64,000 nucleotides of DNA from a virus (Duplodnaviria; Heunggongvirae; Uroviricota; Caudoviricetes), in the IMG/VR virus record IMGVR_UViG_651053022_000004, positions 1 to 64,000 of that record; one strand, written 5' to 3'. Position numbers and translations under genes: made by a program. Position 1 is the first letter of the stretch. Every line of letters begins with the position of its first letter. Shown in pieces: positions 1 to 58,095 of this stretch. The notes beneath the pieces were generated by a model that saw nothing but the letters and a program-made list of their open reading frames with translations, was not told the DNA's origin and ran no database searches.

Positions 1-1143
1 CTATGCTGTTTTGATATCTACGATAATCCAGTCTTTACCACGATCATCATTGTATCGGTCGGTCATTTTTCTGGATTTATGGCCTAACAACTTTTGCGTA
101 TCCAGACCCTGTTCCCGATATAACCGTTCTGACAGAGATCGCTGCTCATGAAATGTGGGCGCAGTTCCTTGCTCCCATTTTATGCCACATTTTTCCCGGG
201 CCTTTTTAAAAGCCGTTGTCAGAGTATTTGCAGAAACCTGGTCTCCTCTGTTTGCTTGAGAGGTAGTGTGACGGTAATGGACCAGATATTTACTAACAAC
301 AGCATCCCTGCACTGAGATATAACTTCACGAAGGGTAATATTCAGAGCATCGCATTTCAGGTTAAGCGGAATAGCAAGTTTTGAACCGGTTTTTTCCTGA
401 GTAATGTGCAACATGTCGTCCCATATATCAGAGAATTTCAAATTGCAGATATCGCCTAAACGTTGTCCAGTAACAAGAGCAAGTAGCATGCCGCATTTTA
501 AATAGGGCTGCCGTCTGCTTACGCTGTCAAATATTGCCTGCCATTCGGGCAGTGACAATCTTTGGCGGTTTACTCGATTTCGCGGTTGTTTTGTTGCCTG
601 CGCTGGGTTAAATCCTGGCGGAACATGTCCTGCGTGTTGTGCTTCTTTGAAGACGTCGATCAACACCATTCTCACGACTTGCGCCATCCTGTTATGACCT
701 TCAGCCTTTACAGCATCAATTATTTCGGCAATATCAAGTGCGGTAATATCCTTGAGGTGTTGCATTCCACAATGCTCACGGAAAAGACGAATGGGTTTGC
801 CTTTTTGCCGATAGGAGTTGGGTCTTAGTTCATTATGTTGCAGCCTGTCCTCTTGGATAGAAATATATTTATCAAGCCATTCTGTCACCGTAATGTCTGA
901 GCGCCTGCCTTTCATTCTTTCCAGACGCTCATTGACGCTTAATATTTGTCTGGTACGTTGTTCAGCAATAATGGTATTTGCTTCAGTAGCAACTTGTTTT
1001 GCTTCATTCTCATCAGTTCCTAAGCTATGAAAACGACCGGATAGTGGATGTTTGTATTGCCAATATACCTTTCCGGTTCGCTTATCTAATTTGCAATATA
1101 AATTGGGTATAGAGATTTTGTGAGATCGGGGTCTAGCAGCCAT
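1..1143 (-). CDS. int: Phage integrase, tyrosine recombinase (not lambda Int)
   Basis: 380-aa ORF whose stop codon is window positions 1-3; C-terminal ...LLGHKSRKMTDRY... fits the His-x-x-Arg...Tyr catalytic arrangement; excisionase-like ORF adjacent. Confidence 0.9.
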   Translation of the reverse strand: MAARPRSHKISIPNLYCKLDKRTGKVYWQYKHPLSGRFHSLGTDENEAKQVATEANTIIAEQRTRQILSVNERLERMKGRRSDITVTEWLDKYISIQEDRLQHNELRPNSYRQKGKPIRLFREHCGMQHLKDITALDIAEIIDAVKAEGHNRMAQVVRMVLIDVFKEAQHAGHVPPGFNPAQATKQPRNRVNRQRLSLPEWQAIFDSVSRRQPYLKCGMLLALVTGQRLGDICNLKFSDIWDDMLHITQEKTGSKLAIPLNLKCDALNITLREVISQCRDAVVSKYLVHYRHTTSQANRGDQVSANTLTTAFKKAREKCGIKWEQGTAPTFHEQRSLSERLYREQGLDTQKLLGHKSRKMTDRYNDDRGKDWIIVDIKTA

Positions 1144-1369
1144 CAGCGATTATCCTTTGGAGTTTTGGGTTTGCGTTTATTGGGAGTTGCGGTTCTGCAA
1201 GCGTTCCTACAAAACGGGAATTTCGGTCAATCATCCAGTAGCGACCAACTTTTATAGCGGGTGGGGCCATCATTTTCCCTTGCGCGTATTTTTTCAGAAC
1301 TCGCTCACTTGGTGCTAAGTCCCCAAATTCTTCTTTAGCCCAGTCCTGTAAAGTGATTAGTCGAGACAT
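1133..1369 (-). CDS. xis: Excisionase-like protein
   Basis: 78-aa ORF overlapping the integrase start by 11 nt; size and position typical of lambdoid Xis. Confidence 0.6.
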   Translation of the reverse strand: MSRLITLQDWAKEEFGDLAPSERVLKKYAQGKMMAPPAIKVGRYWMIDRNSRFVGTLAEPQLPINANPKLQRIIADGC

Positions 1370-1508
1370 TTGTCCTCCTCTTAGCTGCTGAGGGAGTTTG
1401 TGACCGATATATCTGACATGATATTAAGCTCATGGCAGGTACATCTCTTGACTGGTCATAGAGATAAATTTAATGCTGAGAAATGCAGTATTGAATTTAT
1501 CAATTTTT

Positions 1509-1748
1509 CTATTTCCTGCGCATGTCACGTAACTTCTTAATGTGTTCTGCCGTTTCGATCTCTTCTGCTATCCGATCTGCATCAGCTTTATTCACAGGTT
1601 CAAAGTCATGATTAAAGCGGAACATGCTGGCGATACATGTTCTGCCTTTTCGGATGTAGTGAACTTTGTTGTGGGTAGAACGCAGGATTTTGCAGGGAGT
1701 GCCGTGGTGGTCGACGTACCAGGTGTTAGGGTCAATCACTCTGAACAT
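1509..1748 (-). CDS. Hypothetical early-left protein (DUF4222-like by recollection)
   Basis: 79-aa ORF in the int-exo accessory cluster, co-oriented with neighbours. Confidence 0.4.
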   Translation of the reverse strand: MFRVIDPNTWYVDHHGTPCKILRSTHNKVHYIRKGRTCIASMFRFNHDFEPVNKADADRIAEEIETAEHIKKLRDMRRK

Positions 1749-2061
1749 TCTTGACCTTGTGTTGTGCGGATTGATATTCAGTGCTGATATTCACCTTTAT
1801 AGCGAACACCTTTACCGGTTTATCGCCAAAGTGCGGATGTGTGATTGTCTTCACTTCATATCCGTCATACGGAACATCAATTCTGCGACTGGAATCGTCG
1901 CGCTTCGGATATCCCTTTGTGATAATCAGGCGGTCATATTCCCGGAACATAATTCGCTTATTCCAGTAGTCATTACACAAGCGATACTCTTCCGTTTTCT
2001 CTCCGCGAATCATGGCATCGAAGTATTCACTTTTAACAGCAAGTTGCAGGTTAGCCATCAC
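1732..2061 (-). CDS. ASCH-domain-like protein
   Basis: 109 aa; contains G-E-K-T-E-E-Y-R matching the GxKxxExR signature I associate with ASCH domains. Confidence 0.4.
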   Translation of the reverse strand: MMANLQLAVKSEYFDAMIRGEKTEEYRLCNDYWNKRIMFREYDRLIITKGYPKRDDSSRRIDVPYDGYEVKTITHPHFGDKPVKVFAIKVNISTEYQSAQHKVKNVQSD

Positions 2062-2279
2062 TTAATCCCCCTTTGTTTGCGGATAAGCTCCAGATCTTGC
2101 TGGCAACTGGCGCAAGTCCGACAACCCTGAACGGCCAGGCGTCTTCGTTCATCTATCGGATCGCCACACTCACAACAATGAGTGGCAGATACAGCCAGGT
2201 AGTTCAGGCGGCGCATTTTTATTGCTGTGTTGCGCTGTAATTCTTCTATTTCTGATGCTGAATCAATGATGTCTGCCAT
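2058..2279 (-). CDS. TraR/DksA-family C4 zinc-finger protein
   Basis: 73 aa with Cys-x-x-Cys ... Cys-x-x-Cys (CCECGDPI ... CRTCASC), the arrangement of phage TraR-like proteins. Confidence 0.7.
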   Translation of the reverse strand: MADIIDSASEIEELQRNTAIKMRRLNYLAVSATHCCECGDPIDERRRLAVQGCRTCASCQQDLELIRKQRGIK

Positions 2280-2330
2280 CTTTCATTAATCCCTGAACTG
2301 TTGGTTAATACGCTTGAGGGTGAATGCGAA

Positions 2331-2356
2331 CAATAAAAAAGGAGCCTGTAGCTCCC
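2331..2356 (-). terminator. Candidate rho-independent terminator within the early-left operon
   Basis: Hairpin ggagcctgtagctcc preceded on the plus strand by an A-run (U-run on the minus-strand transcript). Confidence 0.35.
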
Positions 2357-2377
2357 TGATAATTTTGCTTTTCATGT

Positions 2378-2659
2378 TCATCGTTCCTTAAAGACGCCGT
2401 TTAACATGCCGATTGCCAGGCTTAAATGAGTCGGTGTGAATCCCTTCAGCGTTACCGTTTCGCGGTGCTTCTTCAGTACGCTACGGCAAATGTCATTGAC
2501 GTTTTTATCCGGAAACTGCTGTCTGACTTTTTTGATTTCAGAATTAGCCTGACGGGCAATGCTGCGAAGGGCATTTTCTTGCTGAGGTGTCACTGAACAA
2601 GCCCCATGTCGGCAAGCATAAGCACACAGAATATGAAGCCCGCTGCCAGAAAAATGCAT
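2378..2659 (-). CDS. Hypothetical protein
   Basis: 93-aa ORF co-oriented in the early-left cluster; no recognisable motif. Confidence 0.3.
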   Translation of the reverse strand: MHFSGSGLHILCAYACRHGACSVTPQQENALRSIARQANSEIKKVRQQFPDKNVNDICRSVLKKHRETVTLKGFTPTHLSLAIGMLNGVFKER

Positions 2660-2669
2660 TCAGTGGTTG

Positions 2670-2861
2670 TCATACCTGGTCTCTCTCATCTGCTTCTGCT
2701 TTCGCCACCATCATTTCCAGCTTTTGTGAAAGGGATGTGGCTAACGTATGAAATTCTTCGTCTGTTTCTGCTGGTATTGGCACAAACCTGACTCCAATTT
2801 GAGCAAGGCTATGTGCCAAATCAATACTCGTTCTTAACTCAACAGGAGATGCTTTGTGCAT
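2670..2861 (-). CDS. Hypothetical protein
   Basis: 63-aa ORF co-oriented in the early-left cluster. Confidence 0.3.
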   Translation of the reverse strand: MHKASPVELRTSIDLAHSLAQIGVRFVPIPAETDEEFHTLATSLSQKLEMMVAKAEADERDQV

Positions 2862-3012
2862 ACCGCCCCCCGTTTATTATTTATCTCCTCAGCCAGCCGC
2901 TGGGCTTTCAGCGGATTTCGGATAACAGAAAGACCGTGAAATACCCAGCCTCGCTTTGTAACGGAGTAGACGAAAGTGATCGCGCCTACCCGGATATTAT
3001 CGTGAGGATGGG

Positions 3013-3693
3013 TCATCGCCATTGCTCTCCAAATACAAAACCAATTTCAGCCAGTGCTTCGTCCATTTTTTCGATGAACTCCGGCACCATCTCGTCAAAA
3101 CTCGCCATGTACTTTTCATCCCGCTCAACCACGACATAATGCAGGCCTTCACGCTTCATTCGTGGGTCATAGTTGGCAAAGTACCAGGCATCTTTTCGTG
3201 TCACCCACATGCTGTACTGCACCTGGGCCATGTAAGCCGACTTTATGGCCTCGAAACCACCGAGCCGGAACTTCATGAAATCCCGGGAGGTAAACGGGCA
3301 TTTCAGCTCAAGGCCATTGCCGTCACTGCATAAACCATCGGGAGAGCAGGCGGTGCGCATACTTTCGTCGCGATAGATGATCGGGGATTCAGTAACATTC
3401 ACGCCGGAAGTGAATTCAAACAGGGTTCTGGCGTCGTTCTCGTACTGTTTTCCCCACGCCAGCGCCTTAGCATTAACTTCCGGAGCCACACCGGTGCAAA
3501 CCTCAGCCAGCAGGGTGTGGAAGTAGGACATTTTCATGTCAGGCCACTTCTTTCCTGAGCGGGGCTTTGCTATCACGTTGTGAACTTCTGAAGCGGTGAT
3601 GACGCCGAGCCGTAATTTGTGCCATGCATCATCCCCCTGTTCGACAGCTCTCACGTCGATCCCGGTACGCTGCAGGATAATGTCCGGTGTCAT
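3013..3693 (-). CDS. exo: Lambda exonuclease (Red alpha)
   Basis: 226-aa translation ([43 protein letters not shown]...) matches lambda Exo as I recall it. Confidence 0.95.
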
Positions 3694-4475
3694 GCTGCCA
3701 CCTTCTGCTCAGTGGCTTTCTGTTTCAGGAATCCAAGAGCTTTCACTGCTTCGGCCTGTGTCAGTTCTGACGATGCGCGAATGTCGCGGCGAAATATCTG
3801 GGAACAGAGCGGCAATAAGTCGTCATCCCATGTTTTGTCCAGGGCAATCAGCAGAGTGTTAATCTCCTGCATGGTTTCATCGTTAACCGGAGTGATGTCG
3901 CGTTCCGGCTGACGTTCCGCAGTGTATGCAGTATTTTCGACAATGCGCTCGGCTTCATCCTTGTCATAGATACCAGCAAATCCGAAGGCCAGACGGGCAC
4001 ACTGAATCATGGCTTTATGCCGTAACATCCGTTTGGGATGCGACTGCCACGGCCCCGTGATTTCTCTGCCTTCGCGAGTTTTGAATGGTTCGCGGCGGCA
4101 TTCATCCATCCATTCGGTAACGCAGATCGGATGATTGCGGTCTTTGCGGTAAATCCGGCACGTACATGATTCATTGTCCTGCTCAAAGTCCATGCCATCA
4201 AACTGCTGGTTTTCATTGATGATGCGGGACCAGCCATCAACGCCCACCACCGGAACGATGCCGTTCTGCTTATCAGGGAAGGCGTAAATTTCTTTCGTCC
4301 ACGGATTAAGGCCGTACTGGTTGGCGACGATCAGCAATGCGATGAACTGCGCATCGCTGGCATCACCTTTAAATGCCGTCTGACGAAGAGTGGTGATCAG
4401 TTCCTGTGGGTCGACAGAATCCATGCCGACACGTTCAGCCAGCTTCCCAGCCAGCGTTGCGAGTGCTGTACTCAT
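3690..4475 (-). CDS. bet: Bet single-strand annealing recombinase (Red beta)
   Basis: 261-aa translation ([48 protein letters not shown]...) matches lambda Bet. Confidence 0.95.
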
Positions 4476-4480
4476 CCGTT

Positions 4481-4777
4481 TTATACCTCTGAATCAATAT
4501 CAACATGGTGGTGAGCAATGGTTTCAACCATGTACCGGATGTGTTCTGCCATGCGCTCCTGAAACTCAACATCGTCATCAAACGCACGGGTAATGGCTTT
4601 TTTGCTGGCCCCGCAGCGTTGCAAATGATCGATGCAGAGTGATTCAAACAGGTGCTGTGGAAGACCTTTTTCCATGTCGTCTGCCAGTTCTGCCTCTTTC
4701 TCTTCACGGGCGATCTGCTGGTAGTGACGCGCCCAGCTTTGAGCCTCAAGACGATCCTGAATGTAATAAGCGTTCAT
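4481..4777 (-). CDS. gam: Gam, RecBCD nuclease inhibitor (short form)
   Basis: 98-aa translation ([47 protein letters not shown]...) matches lambda GamS. Confidence 0.95.
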
Positions 4778-4852
4778 GGCTGAACTCCTGAAAATGGCTG
4801 TGAAAATATCGCCTGCGAAATGCCGGGCTGATTAGGTAAACAGGAAAGGGGA

Positions 4853-5143
4853 TTAGTGATTCAGGCCGTTGCCGCGTCCGTCGAGAAAAACTTCCACGAG
4901 CAAATCACGGGTATAAGTGCGCTCGATGCCGCGATGCAGATAAAGCCGTCCGCGTAAATTAGCTGATGCAGTCCAGGTACCATCTTTGTGTTTGACCAGC
5001 ATTCCTGGCATGACCGCACCGCGATTAACGGTCTGCGTTCCGTAATGTTGATGAACCATAAAAACTCCTGCCCGTAAGCTGGGCTGCTGAACATATAGAG
5101 ACTTCTGCGCGTATTCAGGCGGTGGATGGCCGCCGGTTGTCAT
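4853..5143 (-). CDS. Hypothetical protein, first ORF downstream of the putative leftward promoter
   Basis: 96-aa ORF occupying the position of lambda kil/cIII/N but resembling none of them. Confidence 0.35.
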
Positions 5144-5340
5144 AACTAAGCCGCCTCGTTGAAGCGACTAAGGTATGAAATGTTGAGTTAATTTCAGCTG
5201 GTCACACCGACGTTCACGCGTCCGTTTCACCCCTCGCACTCCCCGAAGCCTGCTGAAATTCAAACTGCGGATCTAAGCGGTCATCGCAACGGTGAATCAG
5301 GTAGTTGCCGTATCGTTGTGTTGTTGCGATGAACTTATTT

Positions 5341-5400
5341 AAAACTATAGTTGTTTTATCGTCAACAACAAAAGTTGTTTTATTGGTTGTTTTAGATATA
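5341..5400. promoter_or_regulatory. Candidate left operator/promoter region
   Basis: 17-mer aaaactatagttgtttt is the near-exact reverse complement of a 17-mer in the cI-cro intergenic region; palindrome aacaacaaaagttgtt; repeated GTTGTT half-sites. Confidence 0.4.
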
Positions 5401-5504
5401 ACTGGTTGTATTTAGGATGGATTTATTTTGTGACTTGAATCGCATAGCGATAACTGAAGCGAGGTTATGGTGGTTTTTTTAACGGTGTGTGTGATGAGGG
5501 GAGG

Positions 5505-5534
5505 GCAAAAGAAAACCCGGCACGGTGACCGGGA
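5505..5534 (-). terminator. Candidate rho-independent terminator downstream of the repressor gene
   Basis: Hairpin cccggcacggtgaccggg preceded on the plus strand by an A-rich run. Confidence 0.4.
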
Positions 5535-5654
5535 TTCTTACGCCGTTAGGTAAAGATATTATTGCGGTGGCTTAATATTACTACCTAGAGCAAAGATAGG
5601 AATTAGTTCTTTACTGAATGAGCACAATGCCCAGTTGATAATTTTTAATTGGTA

Positions 5655-6344
5655 CTACCCATGCTTCCTATATGTCTGCGGCATGCTCCCAATAACCTTA
5701 CCGAAGATGAACACCCGGTTCATCTCGTCTTTCTCGATCGGGTCCCACGGTGAGTAGCTTTTGTTATCAGAGATGACCAGCAGCTTATCCTTCATCATTT
5801 GCAGGCGCTTTACATGGGCTGTGTCGTCGTACAGAAACGCATAGATACCATCACCGTCGAAAGATTTAACTGTGATATCAACGAACAGCAGATCACCTGG
5901 TTCGATCGTTCCTGACATGCTGTCACCACGCACGTTAATGATGCGGATATTTTCCGCCTTCCTACCATCGAACATGTGACGAGCATCGTCAAACGAGTAC
6001 TCAACCGAGCGTAGAACTTCTACAAACTCACGGTTGATGACTCCCGGCCCAGCACTGACTTCTATATCAAGAACGTCAATCTTGAAGTATTTGGAATGGC
6101 TGACAGTTGATTGTATTGGTTGCACTGTACTGTCTGACATATTTCCAACGCCAGAAGATAACCATTCTGCGCGCACACCCAAAGCGTTCGCGATCTCCAC
6201 GATTTTAGTTGTTTGATTAGCTTTCCCTGTTTCGATTTTCTGAATAGCAGCCTGGCTAACCCCGACCAAATCCCCAAGCGCCTTTTGTGTAAGGCCTCGC
6301 GCTAATCTGGCTTCTTTAAGTCTTTCTGAGAGTGTTGTTTTCAT
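5655..6344 (-). CDS. CI-like prophage repressor (HTH plus LexA-like S24 peptidase domain); start at internal ATG
   Basis: N-terminal HTH (LTQKALGDLVGVSQAAIQKIETGK), C-terminal VRGDSMSGTIEPGDLL with a downstream Lys as in LexA/CI autocleavage domains; divergent from a Cro-like gene. Confidence 0.85.
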   Translation of the reverse strand: MKTTLSERLKEARLARGLTQKALGDLVGVSQAAIQKIETGKANQTTKIVEIANALGVRAEWLSSGVGNMSDSTVQPIQSTVSHSKYFKIDVLDIEVSAGPGVINREFVEVLRSVEYSFDDARHMFDGRKAENIRIINVRGDSMSGTIEPGDLLFVDITVKSFDGDGIYAFLYDDTAHVKRLQMMKDKLLVISDNKSYSPWDPIEKDEMNRVFIFGKVIGSMPQTYRKHG

Positions 6345-6382
6345 AGTCCAAATGTACAACCAAGGTTTTATTCCATCAAACG

Positions 6383-6418
6383 AAAATGGTTGTTGACTAA
6401 AAACAACCATAGTTTTAA
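6383..6418. promoter_or_regulatory. Candidate right operator between repressor and cro-like genes
   Basis: Palindrome atggttgttgactaaaaacaaccat and 17-mer aaaacaaccatagtttt shared in reverse complement with the left region. Confidence 0.5.
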
Positions 6419-6448
6419 TCTTGATTCAAATTAACCACGGAGGTTGTT

Positions 6449-6679
6449 ATGAACCCAGCTATCAAAACAGCGATCAATATCGTTGGTTCACAAAAGAAAC
6501 TGGGCGCTGCTTGCGAAGTTTCACAGCAGGCCGTCTATAAGTGGCTTCACAACAAAGCAAAGGTATCCCCTGAACATGTCGGCAGCATTGTTACGGCTAC
6601 TGGTGGAGTAGTGAAGGCATACCAGATTCGCCCGGATCTTCCGAAGTTGTTTCCACACACCGAAAAGAACGCAGCTTAA
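6449..6679 (+). CDS. Cro-like HTH regulator (YdaS-type)
   Basis: 76-aa ORF divergent from the repressor gene; HTH-like segment KKLGAACEVSQQAVYKW. Confidence 0.7.
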   Translation: MNPAIKTAINIVGSQKKLGAACEVSQQAVYKWLHNKAKVSPEHVGSIVTATGGVVKAYQIRPDLPKLFPHTEKNAA

Positions 6680-6748
6680 ATTTCCATTTCACGCTCTTTA
6701 ACAATAAGCAATCAACTTAACAGTCAATTCAAACTAAAGGAGTCAATT

Positions 6749-7288
6749 ATGCAACCACTTACATACCAACAGACTAGCGGATTTAGCCCGACTGCGGTGA
6801 TAAATCGTTCTCAAACAAAACAGGTGCCAGGCCACGAAAAAATCCGTGATGCCGTCCGCGCCTGGTCGGCTGTAGATAATCAGGATGTCGTTGCCACACT
6901 CATTGTGAATGAGTATCTGGAGCAGGGCGGCGGCACCATCGATTTCCCTGATGATGTCAGCCGTGCACGCCAGAAGCTGTTCCGCTTCCTCGATAACAAA
7001 TTCGATTCTGAAAAATACCGAAATAACGTGCGTGAACTGACCCCGGCAATTCTGGCGGTACTACCGCTGGAATATCGCGGTTACCTGGTTGAGCAGGATA
7101 GCTTCATGGCTAGGTTGGCTGAAATGGAAAAGGAACTCAGTGAGGCAAAACAGGCTGTCATTCTCAACGCACCACGCCACCAGAAACTGAAGGAAATTAG
7201 TGAAGGTATTGTGTCGATGTTTCGTGTGGACCCAGATCTGGCTGGTCCATTGATGGCGATGGTTACTACCATGCTGGGGGCGATATGA
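6749..7288 (+). CDS. YdaT-like / CII-position regulatory protein
   Basis: 179-aa ORF between cro-like and O; assignment by position and recollection of the YdaS/YdaT pairing in lambdoid prophages. Confidence 0.4.
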   Translation: MQPLTYQQTSGFSPTAVINRSQTKQVPGHEKIRDAVRAWSAVDNQDVVATLIVNEYLEQGGGTIDFPDDVSRARQKLFRFLDNKFDSEKYRNNVRELTPAILAVLPLEYRGYLVEQDSFMARLAEMEKELSEAKQAVILNAPRHQKLKEISEGIVSMFRVDPDLAGPLMAMVTTMLGAI

Positions 7289-7374
7289 CAGGTTCAGAAA
7301 TGGCGAAAGCCGGTCTGCTGGAACAGAACCGACTTTCAGGTGCAAATCGTAACACACTCATTGCGGGAGGAATT

Positions 7375-8304
7375 ATGGCAAACACTGCTGAGATATTCAA
7401 TTTTCCAGTGCCGGATGCGGCACAAAAGGAGCCGCGCGTGGCAGATCTCGATGATGGTTATACGCGCATTGCAAATGAGTTGCTGGAAGCTGTGATGCTG
7501 GCCGGATTAACACAGCACCAGCTTCTGGTCTTTCTGGCTGTCATGCGCAAAACATATGGCTTTAATAAAAAACTGGATTGGGTTAGCAACGAGCAACTTT
7601 CCGAATTAACCGGGATATTGCCGCACAAGTGTTCTGCTGCAAAAAGTGTTCTGGTAAAGCGTGGGATTTTTATTCAGAGCGGGCGGAATACCGGCATTAA
7701 TAATGTGGTCAGTGAATGGTCAACATTACCCGAATCAGGTAAGAAAAATAAAGTTTACCTGAAAGAGGTAAATTTACCTGAATCAGGTAAAAAAAGTTTA
7801 CCCAAATCAGGTAAAGGCGTTTACCCGAATCAGGTAAACACAAAAGACAAACTAACAAAAGACAATATAAAACCTTTTTCGTCCGAGAATTCTGGCGAAT
7901 CCTCTGACCAACCAGAAAACGATCTTCCTGTGGTGAAACCGGATGCTGCAATTCAGAGCGGCAGCAAGTGGGGGACAGCAGAAGACCTGACCGCCGCAGA
8001 GTGGATGTTTGACATGGTGAAGACCATCGCGCCATCAGCCAGAAAACCGAATTTTGCAGGGTGGGCTAACGATATCCGCCTGATGCGTGAACGTGACGGA
8101 CGTAACCACCGCGACATGTGCGTGCTGTTCCGCTGGGCATGCCAGGACAACTTCTGGTCCGGTAACGTGCTAAGTCCGGCCAAACTCCGCGACAAGTGGA
8201 CCCAACTCGAAATCAACCGTAACAAGCAACAGGCAGGCGTGACAGCTAGCAAACCAAAACTCGACCTGACAAACACAGACTGGATTTACGGGGTGGATCT
8301 ATGA
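7375..8304 (+). CDS. O: Replication initiator O (start at internal ATG after a GGAGG motif)
   Basis: Translation from MANTAEIFNF... aligns with lambda O (VADLDDGY..., LRKTYG...); origin iterons embedded in the coding sequence. Confidence 0.9.
   Translation: MANTAEIFNFPVPDAAQKEPRVADLDDGYTRIANELLEAVMLAGLTQHQLLVFLAVMRKTYGFNKKLDWVSNEQLSELTGILPHKCSAAKSVLVKRGIFIQSGRNTGINNVVSEWSTLPESGKKNKVYLKEVNLPESGKKSLPKSGKGVYPNQVNTKDKLTKDNIKPFSSENSGESSDQPENDLPVVKPDAAIQSGSKWGTAEDLTAAEWMFDMVKTIAPSARKPNFAGWANDIRLMRERDGRNHRDMCVLFRWACQDNFWSGNVLSPAKLRDKWTQLEINRNKQQAGVTASKPKLDLTNTDWIYGVDL
7727..7875. repeat. Replication origin: five ~17-bp iterons plus an A-rich flank inside the O gene
   Basis: ttacccgaatcaggtaa, ttacctgaaagaggtaa, ttacctgaatcaggtaa, ttacccaaatcaggtaa, ttacccgaatcaggtaa at ~23-bp spacing, followed by acaaaagacaaactaacaaaagacaatataaaa. 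Confidence 0.8.
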
Positions 8305-9002
8305 AAAACATCGCCGCACAGATGATTAACTTTGACCGTGAGCAGATGCGTCGGATCGCCAACAACATGCCGGAACAGTACGACGAAAAGCCGCAGGTAC
8401 AGCAGGTAGCGCAGATAATCAACGGTGTATTCAGCCAGTTACTGGCAACTTTCCCGGCGAGCCTGGCTAATCGTGACCAGAACGAACTGAACGAAATCCG
8501 CCGCCAGTGGGTTCTGGCTTTCCGGGAAAACGGGATCACCACGATGGAGCAGGTGAGCGACGGAATGCGTGTTGCCCGTCGGCAGAATAGACCATTTCTG
8601 CCATCACCCGGGCAGTTTGTTGCATGGTGCCGGGAAGAAGCATCCGTTACCGCCGGGCTGCCAAACGTCAGCGAGCTGGTTGATATGGTTTACGAGTATT
8701 GCCGGAAGCGTGGTCTGTATCCGGATGCAGAGTCTTATCCGTGGAAATCAAACGCGCACTACTGGCTGGTTACCAACCTGTATCAGAACATGCGGGCCAA
8801 TGCGTTGACTGACGCGGAATTACGGCGCAAGGCTGCCGATGAACTGGCCTGTATGACCGCGCGAATTAACCGTGGTGAGGCTATACCTGAACCAGTAAAA
8901 CAACTTCCTGTCATGGGCGGTAGGCCTCTAAATCGTGCACAGGCTCTGGCGAAGATCGCAGAAATCAAAGCTAAGTTCGGGCTGAAAGGAGCGATGAAAT
9001 AG
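8301..9002 (+). CDS. P: Replication protein P (DnaB helicase loader)
   Basis: 233-aa translation (MKNIAAQMINFDREQMRRIANNMPEQYDEKPQVQQVAQIINGVF...) matches lambda P. Confidence 0.95.
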   Translation: MKNIAAQMINFDREQMRRIANNMPEQYDEKPQVQQVAQIINGVFSQLLATFPASLANRDQNELNEIRRQWVLAFRENGITTMEQVSDGMRVARRQNRPFLPSPGQFVAWCREEASVTAGLPNVSELVDMVYEYCRKRGLYPDAESYPWKSNAHYWLVTNLYQNMRANALTDAELRRKAADELACMTARINRGEAIPEPVKQLPVMGGRPLNRAQALAKIAEIKAKFGLKGAMK

Positions 9003-9220
9003 AGCTAAAGTATTAGCTTAAAAATAAAGTATACCTAGCGAATATAATCTAGGACTAGTTGTAACGCCCGAAATGATTGATTGCGTGAGCAACAAAATTT
9101 TTCTTCCATTGTTGTGAAATCATTTAGCCATAAAGTTTATGCAGAGATTTTATTTTATTTTTGAGTTGATTTTTTTGTAACGAGCTGTGAACATAAAACA
9201 CTATCAGTAAGTTGGAGTCA

Positions 9221-9607
9221 TTACCCAGGAATTGTTCTGTATTCTACAGCGGCCACAACAAAACCAGCTTCTGCCAGAGCCATTCTCATTTCAATAAATT
9301 TGTCATGTTCAGAAGACATGAATCCGCCGCCGGGATAATAAATAATGGCTGGTTTTAAATCATTTGTTCGCGGGACAAGAACTGACATGTGAAGCTGTCT
9401 GACAGAACGAGTTCCTTTTATCTGGGAATAAACAACATCACCAATGAGATCGACCTGGTTTCTGGTCGGTGAAACACTAATGATATCTGCACCCGGGGTG
9501 TAACCAGGAAGATTAGTCTGGACAGGTGTTGCACAACTCCCGACCGACATGGCCATTGACATACCATACAATAGTGTTGCAGATGATAATATCTTGTTAA
9601 TTTTCAT
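9221..9607 (-). pseudogene. N-terminal fragment of a lipoprotein-type alpha/beta hydrolase (esterase-like), probable remnant
   Basis: Signal peptide with ...SVGSC lipobox, oxyanion-hole-like YYPGGGF and VEYR motif, but the ORF stops before any nucleophile G-x-S-x-G motif; set in an AT-rich island. Confidence 0.4.
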
Positions 9608-10054
9608 GTTTTACATGCCTTGACTTATCGGATGAAATTCTCTTACTAAATTTAACGGCAGTTTAATAGCCGTACAACTCGTGGTAGCCAGGGAAATATC
9701 CCAGTCGTGGTTAAGGTTGTACTTGACGGCTATTATTTCAACAATGCTTAAAGTGAGAGCTTAAGGTTATGCGTATGTTTTACAGTCCGAGTAGATTCTG
9801 ACCAATAGCTTCTTTGTATAATTCTGTCAGAAATAAATCTTGGCTTGCATGAAGTTTGAGACCTTATCTTGTTTGATTATGAATAATCAATTCGCCATAA
9901 TTGTATCACCGGAGCCTGAACAACTCCGGTGACTTCTGCGCTAAACGGGGACGTTTATGCGCACACACAATCCAAACTCTCTTCTCCCTTCACAGATGCA
10001 GAAATGCACCTGCGTTTTTTTGCATCTAGCGTCTGACCTCTGTGGAGGTGAAGC

Positions 10055-30426: not shown

Positions 30427-30669
30427 TACTACGTCATCGTACTGGCCCGGCATTCTAGGCCATAAAGGACAGTCTGGCAGTGGGACTAAATGCACTGACG
30501 CTGACGGATATTACCAAAAATGCAACGTATGGCGTTGAGATAGAAAGTCTGGTGCTGGAGATAAATGTACCGGCATCATCATAAAAAGTGAGCCAGTCAA
30601 ATGGAAGGTATCGTTAAACTCACCGGTAGTGTCAGTGGGTCGTCTGAGATGCCTGCATGAGTTATCAGA

Positions 30670-30699
30670 GCCATCAGTACTTAACTGGTGGCTTTTTTT
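30670..30699 (+). terminator. Candidate late-leader terminator upstream of the holin
   Basis: Hairpin gccatcagtacttaactggtggc followed by a T-run. Confidence 0.45.
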
Positions 30700-30734
30700 A
30701 TTGTTGTCAGCTTCCGGATAACGGGAGACGGGGT

Positions 30735-30950
30735 ATGGACCAGATGGAAAAAATCACAACAGGTGTGTCATACACCACGTCAGCGGTGGGAACGGGCTAC
30801 TGGTTCCTGCAGTTGCTGGACAGGGTTTCCCCGTCTCAGTGGGCGGCAATAGGCGTGCTGGGGAGTCTGCTGTTTGGGCTGCTGACATATCTGACTAACC
30901 TGTATTTCAAAATCAGAGAGGACCGTCGTAAGGCGGCACGGGGAGAGTAA
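30735..30950 (+). CDS. Class II holin, S21-like pinholin (start at internal ATG)
   Basis: 71-aa product [71 protein letters not shown], two TM segments; resembles phage 21 S as I recall it. Confidence 0.8.
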
Positions 30951-30954
30951 TTCA

Positions 30955-31305
30955 ATGACTCAAAACTATGAACTGATTGTGAAAGGGATCCGCAATTTTG
31001 AGAATAAAGTTACGGTAACTTTAGCGTTACGGGACAAAAAACGCTTTGACGGTGAAATTTTTGACCTGGACATCTCGCTGGACCGTGTTGAAGGTGCCGC
31101 GCTGGAGTTTTATGAGGCAGCAGCCAGAAGGAGCATCAGACAGGTCTTCCTGGATGTTGCTGCCGCGTTATGTGAAGGGGATGAGCAGTCGCCGGAAAAG
31201 CGCCCCGTAATTTTAGAGGCGCAGAATGTATGGATAACCTACAAAGGAAAGCTACCGGGAAGAATTACTGGTTCTCTGAAGACTCCTCCGGAATCACAAC
31301 CTTAA
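30955..31305 (+). CDS. Chimeric ORF: YdfR-like (DUF1327-like) N-terminus fused to a duplicated segment
   Basis: 116 aa; N-terminal ~73 aa resemble the small protein found between holin and endolysin in some lambdoid prophages; the last ~39 codons are the segment repeated at 32087-32205. Confidence 0.4.
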   Translation: MTQNYELIVKGIRNFENKVTVTLALRDKKRFDGEIFDLDISLDRVEGAALEFYEAAARRSIRQVFLDVAAALCEGDEQSPEKRPVILEAQNVWITYKGKLPGRITGSLKTPPESQP

Positions 31306-31339
31306 GTCACTGACCGGAACAGATAAACCTGTCCGTGGG

Positions 31340-31867
31340 GCAAAAATCAGATACGGCCTGTCGGCTGCCGTTCTGGCACTGATTGCCGTCGGTGCGCCCG
31401 CGCCTGATATTCTCGACCAGTTTCTGGATGAAAAAGAAGGTAACCACACAACGGCATACCGCGATGGGTCCGGCATCTGGACCATCTGTCGGGGGGCCAC
31501 GATGGTGGATGGAAAACCCGTTTTTCCCGGTATGAAACTGTCGAAGGAAAAATGCGACCAGGTCAACGCCATTGAGCGTGATAAGGCGCTGGCATGGGTG
31601 GAGCGCAATATTAAAGTACCACTGACCGAACCACAAAAAGCGGGTATAGCGTCATTCTGTCCCTATAACATTGGCCCCGGTAAGTGTTTCCCGTCGACGT
31701 TTTATAAGCGGCTGAATGCCGGTGATCGTAAGGGCGCATGCGAGGCGATTCGCTGGTGGATAAAAGATGGTGGGCGCGATTGCCGCATACGTTCAAATAA
31801 CTGCTATGGACAGGTTATTCGTCGTGACCAGGAAAGCGCATTAGCCTGTTGGGGGATAGAGCAGTGA
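31340..31867 (+). pseudogene. SAR-endolysin (lysozyme-like) copy A lacking a start codon
   Basis: Colinear with the intact copy at 32547-33080 from its third codon on, but the upstream in-frame sequence has no ATG/GTG/TTG before the catalytic region; only an internal ATG at 31502. Confidence 0.65.
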
Positions 31868-32268
31868 GCAGAGTCGCCGCGATTATTTATGCTTTGGTTA
31901 TCTGCATCATCGTCTGCCTGTCGTGGGCGGTCAATCATTACCGTGATAACGCCATCGCCTACAAAGAACAGCGTGATAAAAAAGTCAGTGAGCTGAAGCA
32001 GTCGATCGCCACCATCGCTGACATGCAGCAGCGTCAGCGTGATGTTGCTGCACTCGATGCAAAGTACTCGAGAGAATTAGCCAATGCGAAAGTCGCCGGA
32101 AAAGCGCCCCGTAATTTTAGAGGCGCAGGATGTGTTGATAACCTACAGAGGAAAACTACCGGGAATAATTACGGGTTCTCTGAAGAGTCCGCCGAAATGG
32201 TAATTTTACCAGCATATTTTTCATCCAGTAATACAGCAAGCCGCCTGAAAGAGTCTTGTTGTTCCTGA
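31864..32268 (+). pseudogene. Rz-like spanin 5' fragment (about 75 codons) fused to the duplicated segment
   Basis: [40 protein letters not shown]... is Rz-like up to ...ELANAK, then continues into the 32087-32205 repeat in an unrelated frame. Confidence 0.6.
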
Positions 32269-40014: not shown

Positions 40015-41636
40015 GAGAGGCGGGCTGGACCAGCCTGTTTCAGGCGGTGGCTGAGCCCTTTTCCGGCGCCTGGCAGCAGGGCGTGAAAGCCGATCCTGAA
40101 GCCGTCCTCTCCTTTCATGCGGTGTTTGCATGTATTTCGCTGATATCCCGGGATATCGCCAAAATGCGGCTGCGTCTTATGCAGACGGATGCGCATGGGA
40201 TACGCAGGGAAACGCGCCGGGGGGATATTGCCCGCCTCTGTCGTCGTCCCAACGCCCAGCAGAACCGCATCCAGTTTTTTGAACTGTGGCTGAACGCCAA
40301 ACTGCGTCATGGCAATACGGTGGTGCTGAAAATCCGTAATGCCCGGGGGCAGATCAAAGAACTGCGTATTCTGGACTGGAGCCGGGTTGAACCTCTGGTG
40401 GCGGATGACGGCGAGGTGTTCTACCGCATCACGCCGGACCGGAACTGCGGGATCACGGAGGCGGTGACGGTGCCTGCCCGGGAAGTGATCCACGACCGGT
40501 TTAACTGTTTTTTTCATCCGCTTATAGGATTGCCGCCGGTGTATGCCGCCGGGCTGGCGGCCACGCAGGGGCATCATATTCAGGAAAATTCGACGTCTTT
40601 TTTCAGAAATGGCGGCAGGCCGTCCGGGGTGATTGAGATCCCCGGCAGTATTACGGAAGAAAATGCGAAAAAACTGAAGAGCAACTGGGACAGCGGGTAT
40701 ACAGGCGAAAATGCGGGGAAAACGGCCATTCTGAGCAACGGGGCAAAATACAACCCCACGACGTTTTCACCTGTGGATGCGCAGACGGTGGAACAACTGA
40801 AGATGACCGCTGAAATTGTCTGTTCGGTGTTCCGTGTCCCGGCCTACAAGATTGGCGTGGGACAACCGCCTTCCAGTGACAACGTGGAGGCGCTGGAGCA
40901 GCAGTATTATTCCCAGTGCCTGCAGACGCTGATTGAGTCCATTGAACTGTTACTGGATGAGGCGCTGGAAACGGGGGAAAACGAGAGTACAGAATTTGAT
41001 GTCACCACGCTGCTGAGAATGGACAGTGAGCGGCGCATGAAAACGCTGGGGGATGCGGTGAAAAATACGCTTCTCACGCCCAATGAGGCCCGTAAACGGG
41101 AGAACCTGCCGCCCCTGGCCGGCGGTGATGCACTGTATCTTCAGCAGCAGAACTACAGTCTGGAGGCGCTGTCCCGTCGTGATGCCCGTGAGGATCCGTT
41201 CGCGTCTGCCGGGAAAACAGTTTCATCACAGCTGCCTGACGGCGCATCTGACGGTAATAAGGCAATCAGTGAAACAGAGCATGATGCGGTGAAAGCGATG
41301 TTCAGGGGGGATACTGAGAAAATGACGGAACGGGAACTGTCCATTATTCGTGCACTGGGAGAAGAATTCTCCACAGTGCTGGCGGATTTACAGCGCACAT
41401 TTGAGGGGAAGATGGCCTCGCAGGCACAAGCGTTTGAAGAGAAACTGACTTCCCTGTCGGCGGTATTACAGAAGCATGTGACGGTGGATGAGGTGCGTCC
41501 GGTTCTGCAGGCGATGGTGGATGACGCTGTGGGGGCCATTCCGGTACCGCGTGATGGTCGTGATTATGATCCGGATGTACTGCAGCATGGTGAAGGAGGC
41601 TGTAAGCCATATCCCTGTTCCGCGCGACGGTCGTGA
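39960..41636 (+). CDS. Portal protein (3' end enters a tandem-repeat region; start uncertain)
   Basis: 558 aa; colinear with the third-module portal (…FF(R)NGG…, …FNVPA/FRVPAYKIG…); its C-terminus carries the first PVPRDGRDYDPDVLQ unit. Confidence 0.7.
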   Translation: MWNLLRRTRKNQKSGRDVREAGWTSLFQAVAEPFSGAWQQGVKADPEAVLSFHAVFACISLISRDIAKMRLRLMQTDAHGIRRETRRGDIARLCRRPNAQQNRIQFFELWLNAKLRHGNTVVLKIRNARGQIKELRILDWSRVEPLVADDGEVFYRITPDRNCGITEAVTVPAREVIHDRFNCFFHPLIGLPPVYAAGLAATQGHHIQENSTSFFRNGGRPSGVIEIPGSITEENAKKLKSNWDSGYTGENAGKTAILSNGAKYNPTTFSPVDAQTVEQLKMTAEIVCSVFRVPAYKIGVGQPPSSDNVEALEQQYYSQCLQTLIESIELLLDEALETGENESTEFDVTTLLRMDSERRMKTLGDAVKNTLLTPNEARKRENLPPLAGGDALYLQQQNYSLEALSRRDAREDPFASAGKTVSSQLPDGASDGNKAISETEHDAVKAMFRGDTEKMTERELSIIRALGEEFSTVLADLQRTFEGKMASQAQAFEEKLTSLSAVLQKHVTVDEVRPVLQAMVDDAVGAIPVPRDGRDYDPDVLQHGEGGCKPYPCSARRS

Positions 41637-41910
41637 CTATGATCCCGATGTTCTGCAGAAGGCGGTGAATGATGCGGTCGCAAATATTCCGCAGCCGGCG
41701 GACGGTAAAAGTCTCACCCCGGATGATGTGCGTCCGATGCTTGAACAGATGGTGAAGGAGGCTGTAAGCCATATCCCTGTTCCGCGTGATGGTCGTGACT
41801 ACGATCCGGAAGTAGATGTGCGTCCGATGCTTGAACAGATGGTGAAGGAGGCGGTAAGCCATATTCATGTTCCGCGTGATGGTCGTGACTACGATCCGGA
41901 TGTTCTGCAG
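41539..41910 (+). repeat. Tandem coding repeats with PVPRDGRDYDPD units, including a perfect 90-nt tandem pair
   Basis: Units at ~41539, 41612, 41773 and 41863; 41731-41820 and 41821-41910 near-identical. Confidence 0.8.
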
Positions 41911-54481: not shown

Positions 54482-54964
54482 ATGTCTGGACCCCCGAAAA
54501 CCCCGCCACGCCTGCATTTGATACGAGGCAACCCCTCAAAGCGGCCAGTTAAAGACCTCAAAAAAACCGCTAAAAAGGATGAAAAAGGTCTCCCTAAAAT
54601 TCCGCAACATTTAGGGGCGCAGGGGAAGTACTGGTTCAGGCGAATGGCGGAAGAGCTGAATGCGGAAGGGATCATTTCTCAGCTTGATGCGCGTGCGCTT
54701 GAGCTACTGGTGGAAGCCTATACCGAATACCGGCATCACTGCGAAACACTCGATGTTGAGGGGTACACCTACCGCTCGAAAACGCAGAACGGTGATGTGC
54801 TGATTAAGGCACACCCGGCTGCTGCGATGAAAGCGGATGCCTGGAAGCGGATCCGGGCGATGCTTGCAGAATTTGGTATGTCACCGGCAAGCCGGGCAAA
54901 AGTAAATACCGCCGGACCGGATAATGTTGATCCGCTGGCAGAGCTTTTAAAAGCGAGAGACTGA
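54482..54964 (+). CDS. Terminase small subunit (P27-like)
   Basis: 160-aa ORF directly upstream of and abutting the large terminase gene. Confidence 0.75.
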   Translation: MSGPPKTPPRLHLIRGNPSKRPVKDLKKTAKKDEKGLPKIPQHLGAQGKYWFRRMAEELNAEGIISQLDARALELLVEAYTEYRHHCETLDVEGYTYRSKTQNGDVLIKAHPAAAMKADAWKRIRAMLAEFGMSPASRAKVNTAGPDNVDPLAELLKARD

Positions 54965-56721
54965 TGGCAAAAGTGGCTGACGGGATCCGCTACGCCGAAC
55001 GTGTTGTTGCAGGAGAAATTGTTGCTGGCGAATTTGTCCGCCTGGCCTGCCAGCGTTTTCTTGATGATCTGAAGTACGGCGAAAAGCGGGGGATTTATTT
55101 CAGTGAACCCCGTGCGCAGCACATCCTGAATTTCTACAAATTTGTGCCTCATGTAAAAGGGGCACTGGCAGGCCAGCCCATTGAGTTGATGGACTGGCAT
55201 GTATTTATCCTCATTAATATTTTTGGTTTTGTCATTCCGCTGGTCAATGAAGAAACCGGGGAAGTTGTCATGCGCAGCGATGGCAGCGGACGTCCGGTGA
55301 TGGTGCGCCGGTTCCGGACGGCGTACAACGAAGTCGCCCGTAAAAACGCAAAATCAACCCTGTCATCGGGTATCGGCCTGTATATGACGGGGGCAGATAG
55401 TGAAGGCGGAGCTGAGGTGTATTCAGCCGCAACCACGCGTGACCAGGCCAGAATCGTGTTTGAAGACGCCAAAAATATGGTCAGAAAAGCCCGGTCGACA
55501 CTCGGGCGGTTGTTTGATTTCAACAAGCTGGCGATTTACCAGGAGCAGAGCGCATCAAAATTTGAACCGCTTTCCTCGGATGCAAACAACCTGGACGGTC
55601 TGAACATCCACTGCGCCATTATTGATGAGCTGCATGCACATAAAACCCGCGACGTGTGGGACGTTCTGGAAACGGCAACCGGTGCCCGTCTGCAGTCCCT
55701 GTTATTTGGTATCACCACGGCTGGCTTTAACAAGGAAGGGATTTGTTACGAGCAGCGTGATTACGCCATCAAGGTATTGCGAGGCTATAACAGCGACGTG
55801 GAGGGCGCTGTAAAAGACGACTCTTACTTTGCGATCATTTACACGCTTGATGAGGGAGATGATCCGTTTGATGAAACGGTCTGGCAGAAAGCGAATCCTG
55901 GCCTGGGCATCTGTAAACGCTGGGATGATCTGCGTCGTCTGGCGAAAAAAGCGAAGGAGCAGGTCTCTGCGCGGGTGAATTTTTTTACCAAACACATGAA
56001 TGTGTGGGTCACTGCCGAATCTGCCTGGATGGATATGATTAAGTGGGAGAAGTGCGAATACATTGCTCCACAACATGAGCTGAAAACATATCCCATGTGG
56101 GTCGGCGTCGACCTTGCTCATAAGATTGATATCTGTGCGGCGGCAAAACTCTGGCGAACCGATAACGGACATGTTCATGCTGATTTTAAATTCTGGCTTC
56201 CGGAAGGACGGCTGGAACGATGCTCGCGGCAGCAGGCAGAACTTTACCGGAAGTGGGCGGAGATGGATAAGCTCATCCTGACGGATGGTGATGTTATCGA
56301 TCATGCTCAGATAAAAAGTGACTTACTGGAATGGATTGGCGGTGAAAACCTCAGGGAACTGGGATTTGACCCGTGGAGCGCAATGCAGTTCAGTCTGGCA
56401 CTGGCTGAAGAAGGGATACCGCTGGTGGAGGTTCCGCAGACGGTCCGCAATCTGTCAGAGGCCATGAAGGAAACGGAATCACTGGTTTATGCCGGGCGTT
56501 TCCATCACAGCAATCATCCGGTCATGAACTGGATGATGTCTAACGTTACTGTAAAACCGGACAAAAACGACAACATCTTCCCGAATAAATCCACGCCGGA
56601 AGCCAAAATCGACGGCCCTGTTGCGCTTTTTACAGCCATGAGCCGCTTTCTGGTAAATGGCGGGGGCGTGAATGACTTTCTGTCCACGCTTGATCCTGAT
56701 GAGGACCTGTTAATTCTGTGA
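54964..56721 (+). CDS. Terminase large subunit
   Basis: 585 aa; Walker-A-like VARKNAKST; followed by the portal gene. Confidence 0.85.
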   Translation: MAKVADGIRYAERVVAGEIVAGEFVRLACQRFLDDLKYGEKRGIYFSEPRAQHILNFYKFVPHVKGALAGQPIELMDWHVFILINIFGFVIPLVNEETGEVVMRSDGSGRPVMVRRFRTAYNEVARKNAKSTLSSGIGLYMTGADSEGGAEVYSAATTRDQARIVFEDAKNMVRKARSTLGRLFDFNKLAIYQEQSASKFEPLSSDANNLDGLNIHCAIIDELHAHKTRDVWDVLETATGARLQSLLFGITTAGFNKEGICYEQRDYAIKVLRGYNSDVEGAVKDDSYFAIIYTLDEGDDPFDETVWQKANPGLGICKRWDDLRRLAKKAKEQVSARVNFFTKHMNVWVTAESAWMDMIKWEKCEYIAPQHELKTYPMWVGVDLAHKIDICAAAKLWRTDNGHVHADFKFWLPEGRLERCSRQQAELYRKWAEMDKLILTDGDVIDHAQIKSDLLEWIGGENLRELGFDPWSAMQFSLALAEEGIPLVEVPQTVRNLSEAMKETESLVYAGRFHHSNHPVMNWMMSNVTVKPDKNDNIFPNKSTPEAKIDGPVALFTAMSRFLVNGGGVNDFLSTLDPDEDLLIL

Positions 56722-56879
56722 AACAGCTTATTACTGATATGACCGGGCTGATCGGTTTCGGTCTGCTCACTGCTGGCGTTTATCTGTATGCAGGTCTGCC
56801 AGCGTCTCTGATGCTGTCTGGCTGTTTGTTGCTGCTTTATGCACTGGTGGTGTCCATGAGGAGAAAACATGCTTCTTGA
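56718..56879 (+). CDS. Small membrane protein (tentative)
   Basis: 53-codon ORF (GTG start) VKQLITDMTGLIGFGLLTAGVYLYAGLPASLMLSGCLLLLYALVVSMRRKHAS between terL and portal. Confidence 0.25.
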   Translation: MKQLITDMTGLIGFGLLTAGVYLYAGLPASLMLSGCLLLLYALVVSMRRKHAS

Positions 56880-58095
56880 TGCTCTGTTTCGCAGTGAGCC
56901 TCTGGAAAATCCCTCGGTTCCGGTAACCGGAGAGGCCGCAGAGACGGATAATATTTTTGCCCGGGATGTGTATGTCAGTCCGGAAACGTCCATGAGGCTG
57001 GCTGCTGTCTATGCCTGTATTTATGTTATTTCATCCAGTGTGGCTCAGATGCCCCTGCATGTGATGCGAAAAACGAATGAGCATGTTCAGCCGGCACGCG
57101 ATCACCCGTTGTTCTGGCTCGTTCATGATGAACCGAATGCCTGGCAGACCAGCTATAAGTGGCGGGAACTGAAGCAGCGTCATGTGCTGGGGTGGGGCAA
57201 TGGTTATACGTGGGTGAAACGTAATCGTCGTGGCGAGGTTACCAGTCTTGAATGCTGTATGCCATGGGAAACCACGTTACTTAACACCGGAGGGCGTCAT
57301 ACCTACGGTGTGTATAACGAAGAGGGTGCATTTGCGGTAAGTCCGGACGACATGATCCATATCAGGGCGCTGGGAAACAATCAGAAAATGGGACTGAGTC
57401 CGATCATGCAGCATGCTGAAACCATTGGTATGGGAATGAGTGGTCAGCAGTATACCAGTGCTTTTTTTAACGGTAATGCCCGTCCTGCCGGGATTATTTC
57501 TGTGAAAAATGAACTGAACGAACAGAGTTGGAGCAGGCTCAAGAATATGTGGCAGCGGGCGGTGACAGCGCTTCGCAGCCAGGAAAATAAAACCATGTTG
57601 CTGCCTGCGCAACTGGATTACCGCGCTCTGACAGTTTCTCCGGTGGATGCTCAGATCATTGATATGACCAAGCTGAACCGGTCGATGATTGCCGGGATTT
57701 TTAATGTCCCGGCGCACATGATTAATGACCTGGAAAAAGCCACATTTTCGAATATTACGCAGCAGGCGATTCAGTTTGTTCGCTACACGATGATGCCCTG
57801 GGTTGCGAACTGGGAGCAGGAGCTTAACCGTCGCCTGTTTACCCGTACAGAACGGGCTGCCGGGTATTACGTTCGTTTCAACCTCACGGGGTTGCTCCGT
57901 GGGACCCCACAGGAGCGTGCGCAGTTCTATCACTTTGCCATTACAGATGGCTGGATGAGTCGGAATGAAGCCAGGGCATTTGAGGATATGAACCCGGTTG
58001 ACGGTCTGGATGAAATGCTGGTCAGCGTAAATGCAGCAAATCCGTTGAATAACTTTAAAGATACGAAAGGCAAAGAGGAAAAGAACGATGAATGA
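56869..58095 (+). CDS. Portal protein (HK97-type)
   Basis: 408 aa; position after terL and before the prohead protease. Confidence 0.85.
   Translation: MLLDALFRSEPLENPSVPVTGEAAETDNIFARDVYVSPETSMRLAAVYACIYVISSSVAQMPLHVMRKTNEHVQPARDHPLFWLVHDEPNAWQTSYKWRELKQRHVLGWGNGYTWVKRNRRGEVTSLECCMPWETTLLNTGGRHTYGVYNEEGAFAVSPDDMIHIRALGNNQKMGLSPIMQHAETIGMGMSGQQYTSAFFNGNARPAGIISVKNELNEQSWSRLKNMWQRAVTALRSQENKTMLLPAQLDYRALTVSPVDAQIIDMTKLNRSMIAGIFNVPAHMINDLEKATFSNITQQAIQFVRYTMMPWVANWEQELNRRLFTRTERAAGYYVRFNLTGLLRGTPQERAQFYHFAITDGWMSRNEARAFEDMNPVDGLDEMLVSVNAANPLNNFKDTKGKEEKNDE

Follow-up and report, generated by a model that had tools for sequence, protein, structure and literature searches.

IS1 truncation of a lipoprotein hydrolase gene and probable decay of a moron island between P and the nin region of a lambda-like prophage

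Lambdoid phages carry variable cargo between the replication gene P and the nin region. At this one position ren, qacE/emrE, a recombinase, and an esterase are found in phage 4A7, an inverse autotransporter and an esterase in ST131-type prophages, and no cargo in others; the renD-emrE-ybcK-ybcL-ybcM region of the DLP12 prophage of K-12 is presumably comparable. Between otherwise collinear related phages, the cargo is present or absent at a fixed position, as is characteristic of a moron, and the differing cargo of related phages supports the proposal of the initial annotation that this site is a moron hotspot. To the right of the cargo site, the annotation of phage 82 (X92588) shows orf151 (= ybcN) and, immediately preceding it, a putative promoter, an inverted-repeat "regulator-binding site," and orf33.

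The esterase found at this site is a 347-residue lipoprotein alpha/beta-hydrolase (WP_000700202.1, encoded by a gene of 1044 nt) that is annotated as "alpha/beta hydrolase" or "esterase." It scores 153.9 bits against the BD-FAE profile (positions 7-214) and 81.3 bits against Abhydrolase_3, and its best solved relative is PDB 6nkf (Lip_vut4; E 1.6e-37 over residues 48-330). The catalytic residues Ser164 (in GDSAGG), Asp276, and His308 all lie past residue 127. Judged by these alignments, the protein is by family a clear BD-FAE / Abhydrolase_3 esterase. The hydrolase gene is present in 681 of 5426 complete Escherichia coli genomes and is contiguous, that is, at least 80% covered, in 671. It also occurs in eight lambdoid phage records (Lambda_4C10, 4A7 with two records, D2, 1W, 3W, PhiR47_2, and Perceval), and the full-length annotation of 1044 nt was seen in phage 4A7, the one of the eight that was examined. 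When phage 4A7 is compared with an ST131-type prophage, homology runs from 4 nt past the hydrolase stop codon through the nin genes, while the left neighbor of the hydrolase differs (a recombinase in phage 4A7, the inverse autotransporter in the ST131-type prophage). These shared homology limits and differing left neighbors indicate that the hydrolase gene and the 264 nt upstream of it form a separate module.

An interrupted allele of this gene is on record as well. In E. coli AVS0051 (NZ_CP124429.1), a full 768-bp IS1 flanked by the 9-bp duplication CAGGAATTG lies in the hydrolase gene at the site described below, and RefSeq marks both halves of the hydrolase as pseudogenes, with the 381-nt 5' fragment missing the C-terminus. 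The gene family, the insertion sequence, and the interrupted allele are all already annotated in public genomes.

The locus studied here lies in a 64,000-nucleotide stretch of viral DNA, referred to as the window. The interval of interest, 9003-10054, follows the stop codon of P, a lambda-type replication gene at 8301-9002, and extends to ybcN, which starts with GTG at 10055 and is followed by ninE, ybcO, rusA, ylcG, and Q; homology to lambda P stops about 10 nt ahead of the P stop codon. As the initial annotation had stated, lambda ren is absent: a tblastn search of the whole window with the Ren-like protein of phage 4A7 gave a best E-value of 2.6. The G+C content is 0.396 over the entire interval and 0.382 over 9003-9871, as compared with 0.533 for the window, 0.538 for P, and 0.499 for the nin-to-Q block. 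The intact cargo genes have 0.44-0.45, above the 0.38 of the remnant and below the 0.50-0.54 of the flanks. The base composition of the remnant is foreign and distinct from the phage backbone. A search of 8800-10300 against Rfam in E-value mode returned zero RNA families, and the promoter and terminator predictions of a scan were not above the counts in shuffled sequence.

The description of the whole interval as about 1 kb of AT-rich cargo holds for 9003-9871 but not for the right 183 nt. Phages without the hydrolase (phage 82, Turner, PhiR30_1, and others) match the window only from 9872 rightwards, and this segment has the elements known from phage 82: a putative -35/-10 pair (9873-9901), an inverted repeat (~9905-9933), and an orf33/ylcH-like frame (9957-10058) that overlaps the ybcN start and is a 33-aa hypothetical protein in RefSeq. 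The scan predicted a promoter-like site at the equivalent place, and among its predictions, only this phage-82-type promoter agrees with published annotation. Homology thus identifies 9872-10054 as a conserved nin-region leader, not cargo. When intact, the island would measure ~5.9 kb, of which 879 bp are left in the window. The features of the interval are collected in Table 1.

Table 1. Features between P and ybcN in the window
Feature	Position	Strand	Basis
Orphaned leader of deleted 1421-aa inverse-autotransporter gene	9003-9188	+	100% identity to AVS0051/ST131-type prophages
Deletion junction	9188-9189		blastn blocks against AVS0051; junction sequences read directly
IS1 right-end remnant, 37-38 nt	9189-9225	-	Exact inverted repeat; identity to AVS0051
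IS1 target-site duplication, one 9-bp copy, CAGGAATTG	9226-9234		Same 9 bp at both IS1 ends in AVS0051
Lipoprotein alpha/beta-hydrolase (esterase) stub, 128 codons	9221-9607	-	Identity to intact parent
Signal peptide and lipobox, residues 1-25, VGS/C (predicted)	9533-9607	-	Regular expression, PROSITE-type lipoprotein pattern
YPGGGF oxyanion-hole motif, residues 91-96	9320-9337	-	Alignment to PDB 6nkf and to BD-FAE, Abhydrolase_3, and HSL profiles
Hydrolase upstream region, 264 nt, AT-rich; presumed promoter and RBS	9608-9871	-	Travels with the hydrolase
Conserved lambdoid nin-region leader, 183 nt	9872-10054	+	92% identity to phage 82 X92588 positions 49-231

The sole sizeable ORF of the interval is the 128-codon stub on the minus strand, for which a lipoprotein signal and an oxyanion-hole-like motif had been claimed. 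Both were found. The N-terminus, MKINKILSSATLLYGMSMAMSVGSC, fits a PROSITE-type lipobox pattern with the lipobox cysteine at position 25 (the segment GMSMAMSVGSC matches as a regular expression), and lipoprotein status is predicted on this ground. The YPGGGF motif aligns with the oxyanion-hole region of BD-FAE and hormone-sensitive-lipase-type esterases and is, by alignment, the sole catalytic element left in the stub. Against the Pfam BD-FAE profile (PF20434), the stub reaches 20 bits, under the cut-off of 26.8, and covers profile positions 6-57 of 215. Residues 1-127 are identical (127/127) to the N-terminus of WP_000700202.1, which is the intact parent that a homology search had been expected to reveal, and the suspected truncation of a hydrolase gene is thereby confirmed. 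No G-x-S-x-G nucleophile elbow was found in the stub, which, as claimed, terminates before the nucleophile, at residue 128; the catalytic Asp and His are missing as well, with their parental counterparts falling in the lost part. A search of 9608-9871 for a minus-strand promoter gave none at the threshold of the consensus scan, and the sequence natively downstream of the gene is missing from the window.

Since the stub is without Ser164, Asp276, and His308, it cannot be a hydrolase, and it would presumably be unable either to fold into one or to act as one. At most, it may be a short inert lipoprotein that is perhaps still transcribed and exported. The intact upstream region, start codon, predicted signal peptide, and lipobox, together with persistence of the stub in AVS0051 and in a second lineage (contig L005, see below), are what one would expect if the 128-residue product were a functional small lipoprotein, such as a surface or periplasmic factor under selection. 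We regard this as highly improbable: the stop codon is provided by IS1, the product spans about one-quarter of the BD-FAE profile at a score below the Pfam cut-off and probably no more than two to three strands of the eight-stranded alpha/beta fold, and RefSeq calls it a pseudogene. The allele is also very rare. In a protein collection, the intact protein occurs on at least 1000 contigs, as compared with just two other contigs for the exact 128-aa product, both of which end within IS1, and the ORF does not encode a short protein complete in itself, which would have spoken against truncation. The ORF is a dead gene fragment, an ordinary pseudogene scar and no new system.

The cause of the truncation is visible at the 3' end of the stub. 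The 23-bp terminal inverted repeat of IS1 is present exactly at 9203-9225 on the minus strand, as a single copy in the window, where 0 are expected by chance. The remnant is identical to the final 38 nt of the 768-bp IS1 in AVS0051, and IS1 was also matched in phage and E. coli records. Codons 1-127 of the stub are native, and Gly128 and the TAA stop are IS1 inverted repeat (ACA ATT CCT G/GG TAA, the slash marking the boundary). Because the stop codon is supplied by the inverted repeat, truncation of the gene is proven rather than surmised. The window retains one copy of the 9-bp duplication, AVS0051 has both, and the uninterrupted gene has one; from 9226 rightwards, many E. coli prophages and the eight lambdoid phage records match the window at 99.6-100% identity. 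The transposase gene and the second IS1 end are lacking, with no second inverted repeat across the 64-kb window, and the remaining end is presumably immobile.

A second IS1 insertion into this gene was seen in contig L005 (from SRR8541592), the last 30 nt of which, compared with window 9196-9225, place IS1 at the same hydrolase site in the same orientation. The isoform differs, with ACTTATTGAT in place of ACTTACTGAT, and the nin region of L005 is 1.1% divergent. The isoform difference suggests that IS1 entered this site independently in L005 and that the site is thus an IS1 hotspot.

Comparison with AVS0051 revealed a probable second lesion. Two blastn blocks, both at 100%, align window 8955-9188 with positions 1-234 of the AVS0051 locus (L001) and window 9188-11000 with positions 6001-7813. 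The 5766 bp between them (L001 235-6000) are missing at this site, have no match elsewhere in the window, and are bounded by breakpoints that overlap by 1 nt (the T at 9188); over longer distances, the window is 100% identical to AVS0051 from 1 to 9188 and 99.9% from 9188 to 30041. The lost DNA comprises the last 64 nt of the adhesin leader, the whole adhesin gene, the hydrolase 3' fragment, and 730 bp of IS1. As read from the intact neighbor, the lost adhesin is a 1421-aa inverse autotransporter of the intimin/invasin type, with a Pfam IAT_beta match at 5.6e-101 and Big_1 and invasin D3 repeats.

The 186 nt to the left of the junction have a G+C content of 0.30 and match AVS0051 and ST131-type prophages at 100% as far as 9188; in intact relatives, the start codon of the adhesin gene follows 64 nt further on. 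In 559 complete E. coli genomes, this segment is present as a single copy and always runs into the autotransporter gene. Its identity, together with the deletion relative to AVS0051, marks 9003-9188 as an adhesin-gene leader that has been orphaned. The junction itself is absent from the 5426 complete E. coli genomes, and a 42-mer spanning it had 0 matches in GTDB representative genomes, JGI metagenomes, and IMG/VR. In the literature, neither the work on inverse autotransporters of E. coli nor that on the EC958 genome mentions the prophage island or the esterase.

Two IS1-dependent routes to this junction were rejected. A transposase-mediated adjacent deletion keeps the whole element and joins its end to a new target, whereas the breakpoint here lies 38 nt inside IS1 and the left inverted repeat is absent. 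Had two IS1 copies recombined, a complete IS1 would remain.

We conclude that the interval is quite likely the degraded moron island of a lambda-like prophage, a nonfunctional scar left by IS1 insertion and a subsequent 5766-bp deletion. In the ancestral state, which is intact in ST131-type prophages, ~5.9 kb of AT-rich foreign DNA would have lain between P and the nin-region leader, with a rightward gene for the 1421-aa adhesin convergent with a leftward gene for the 347-aa esterase of the BD-FAE / alpha/beta-hydrolase-fold-3 type. The first step can be read directly: IS1 entered codon 128 of the esterase gene with a 9-bp target duplication, and this state survives in AVS0051. In the second step, a single deletion of 5766 bp, observed as a sequence difference and probably brought about by illegitimate recombination, would have linked the adhesin leader, at 64 nt before the adhesin start codon, with the IS1 right end, at 38 nt from its terminus. 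This deletion would have taken away the adhesin gene, two-thirds of the esterase gene on its 3' side, and, with the transposase, 730 bp of IS1. The remnants would then be an orphan adhesin leader, a one-ended immobile IS1, and a 128-codon ORF with its upstream region, predicted signal, and oxyanion-hole motif.

The second step has to be weighed against an artifact. The many unique junctions of the window, yet few point changes relative to AVS0051, raise the question of assembly or concatenation joins: the IS1 truncation would be real, and the 5.8-kb "deletion" would arise from two blocks of an AVS0051-like source, with IS1 complete and the adhesin gene in place, abutted without a gap near repeats. 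The right block begins 38 nt inside IS1, as short-read contigs do, and the Logan contigs L004 and L005 break off 27-30 nt into this IS1 end; L004, which is 100% identical to AVS0051, spans 9199-13608, near the window block 9189-13800. The unique junctions at 13800 in iss and at 30041 in tail gene K are situated in multi-copy prophage sequence, the window has three truncated prophage late regions in series, base 1 of the window is the end of an integrase stop codon, and the junction-specific sequences and products are without any record. Moreover, a 1-nt breakpoint overlap is unusual for spontaneous RecA-independent deletions. However, the left breakpoint lies in sequence that is unique, single copy in the 559 genomes, with no repeat overhang, so that a repeat-induced contig break is unexpected there, and the idea of a contig break at a repeat boundary was not supported. 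The blocks are correctly ordered and oriented, the consensus is of high quality, with no indels in 30 kb relative to AVS0051, and a de Bruijn assembler needs a shared k-mer, not 1 nt, to join flanks. The single-copy left breakpoint and the indel-free consensus favor a real deletion, and we consider the artifact unlikely, though deserving of a check. The IS1 truncation is unaffected by this doubt, because it is seen both in a complete genome and in the second lineage, L005.

Several other junctions and irregularities were observed in the window. The first base coincides exactly with the end of the integrase stop codon (1-3, minus strand), which would fit trimming at a gene boundary. In the Rz/Rz1 region, the only three mismatches to AVS0051 within 9188-13800 fall within 5 nt (13574-13578), which may reflect recombination over a short patch or a local error. 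The iss gene (increased serum survival lipoprotein; 13725-13940, minus strand) has an in-frame deletion of 78 bp (26 codons) relative to AVS0051, with its junction at 13800/13801 and a 1-nt overlap; in complete E. coli genomes, the 301-bp iss query spans 379 bp, with the 78 bp present, in every match listed. At 30041/30042, the lambda-like prophage breaks off midway through tail gene K (C40 peptidase) and meets a different prophage, again with a 1-nt overlap, a junction that is absent from complete E. coli genomes. The junction-specific Iss and K products had no exact counterpart in the protein collection.

The DNA that follows 30041 consists of sequence upstream of lysis genes and then lysis, head, and tail genes, 99.4% identical to E. 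coli IPCEC48. Relative to IPCEC48 (compared at 30442-32198 and 41490-41903), this second segment is without ~1.5 kb of a SASA-family carbohydrate esterase gene (11-nt overlap), has an extra partial lysozyme/Rz cassette, 85-91% divergent, upstream of the complete one, and has its portal gene split into two ORFs by a copy-number change in ~90-nt tandem repeats. It ends at 53507/53508 inside J (730 aa, as compared with ~1157 aa in IPCEC48). Next, at 54482-59919, come head genes of a third set, for both terminase subunits (small and large), the portal, the S78 protease, and the HK97-type capsid. A succession of three truncated late regions suggests either tandem prophage decay or concatenated sequence blocks.

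If the losses were adaptive rather than neutral, surface-exposed cargo (the adhesin, the esterase, and a segment of Iss) would have been shed or altered under selection exerted, for example, by host immunity or phage predation. Two independent lesions in one prophage, the 5766 bp and the in-frame 78 bp in iss, do strike outer-membrane or lipoprotein cargo, the neighboring phage genes are intact and nearly free of SNPs, and the same hydrolase site was struck by a different IS1 isoform in a second lineage. These are, however, two events in a single sequence, decay extends beyond the cargo genes to the truncated tail gene K, and, since IS1 favors AT-rich targets, the hotspot requires no selection; we give this account very little credence. 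Scarcely more probable is the wider speculation that island loss, the iss deletion, and recurrent IS1 insertion together reflect selection against surface-exposed prophage cargo in an ST131-related lineage, in which the stub might be expressed.

On the preferred reading of neutral decay by insertion and deletion, the locus has little import beyond annotation. The ORF is better named an IS1-truncated alpha/beta hydrolase pseudogene fragment, the 37-nt IS1 end is best annotated as a scar, and 9003-9188 as the orphan leader of a lost inverse-autotransporter gene. What the analysis adds to the initial annotation is the IS1 scar, the orphaned leader of a deleted 4.3-kb adhesin gene, and the nin-leader identity of the right 183 nt. 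The interval serves as a worked example of the decay of a prophage cargo island, in which an insertion is followed by a deletion that also kills the insertion sequence, and it provides a prophage copy without the adhesin known from 559 complete E. coli genomes. Users of the sequence should bear in mind that several junctions are unique to the window and need checking against the reads.

Four known systems come close to this locus. The IS1-interrupted hydrolase of AVS0051 (QJP74_RS08985 / RS08980 / RS08975) has the same IS1 isoform end, site, and orientation as the window, the same 9-bp duplication and 381-nt 5' fragment, and flanking prophage DNA that is 99.9-100% identical. In AVS0051, IS1 is whole, and both the hydrolase 3' fragment and the inverse-autotransporter gene (4266 nt) are retained, whereas the window is without those 5766 bp. 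The intact parent WP_000700202.1, which is the "esterase" gp57 of Escherichia phage 4A7 (NC_049946), has the same upstream region and the same place directly left of orf33-ybcN; the window copy lacks its residues 128-347 and ends in an IS1-derived Gly-stop. With 6nkf and the BD-FAE/Abhydrolase_3 esterases, the parent shares the GDSxGG nucleophile elbow, the Asp, and the His, and it differs from them in having a predicted lipoprotein signal and in being phage-borne, whereas the window fragment keeps just the oxyanion-hole strand and helix. Finally, the P/ren-to-nin cargo regions of lambdoid phages such as 4A7 occupy the same spot upstream of orf33(ylcH)-ybcN-ninE-ybcO-rusA-ylcG-Q, with content that varies among related phages; unlike these, the window had an inverse autotransporter and an esterase and no ren, in an island that is now mostly deleted.
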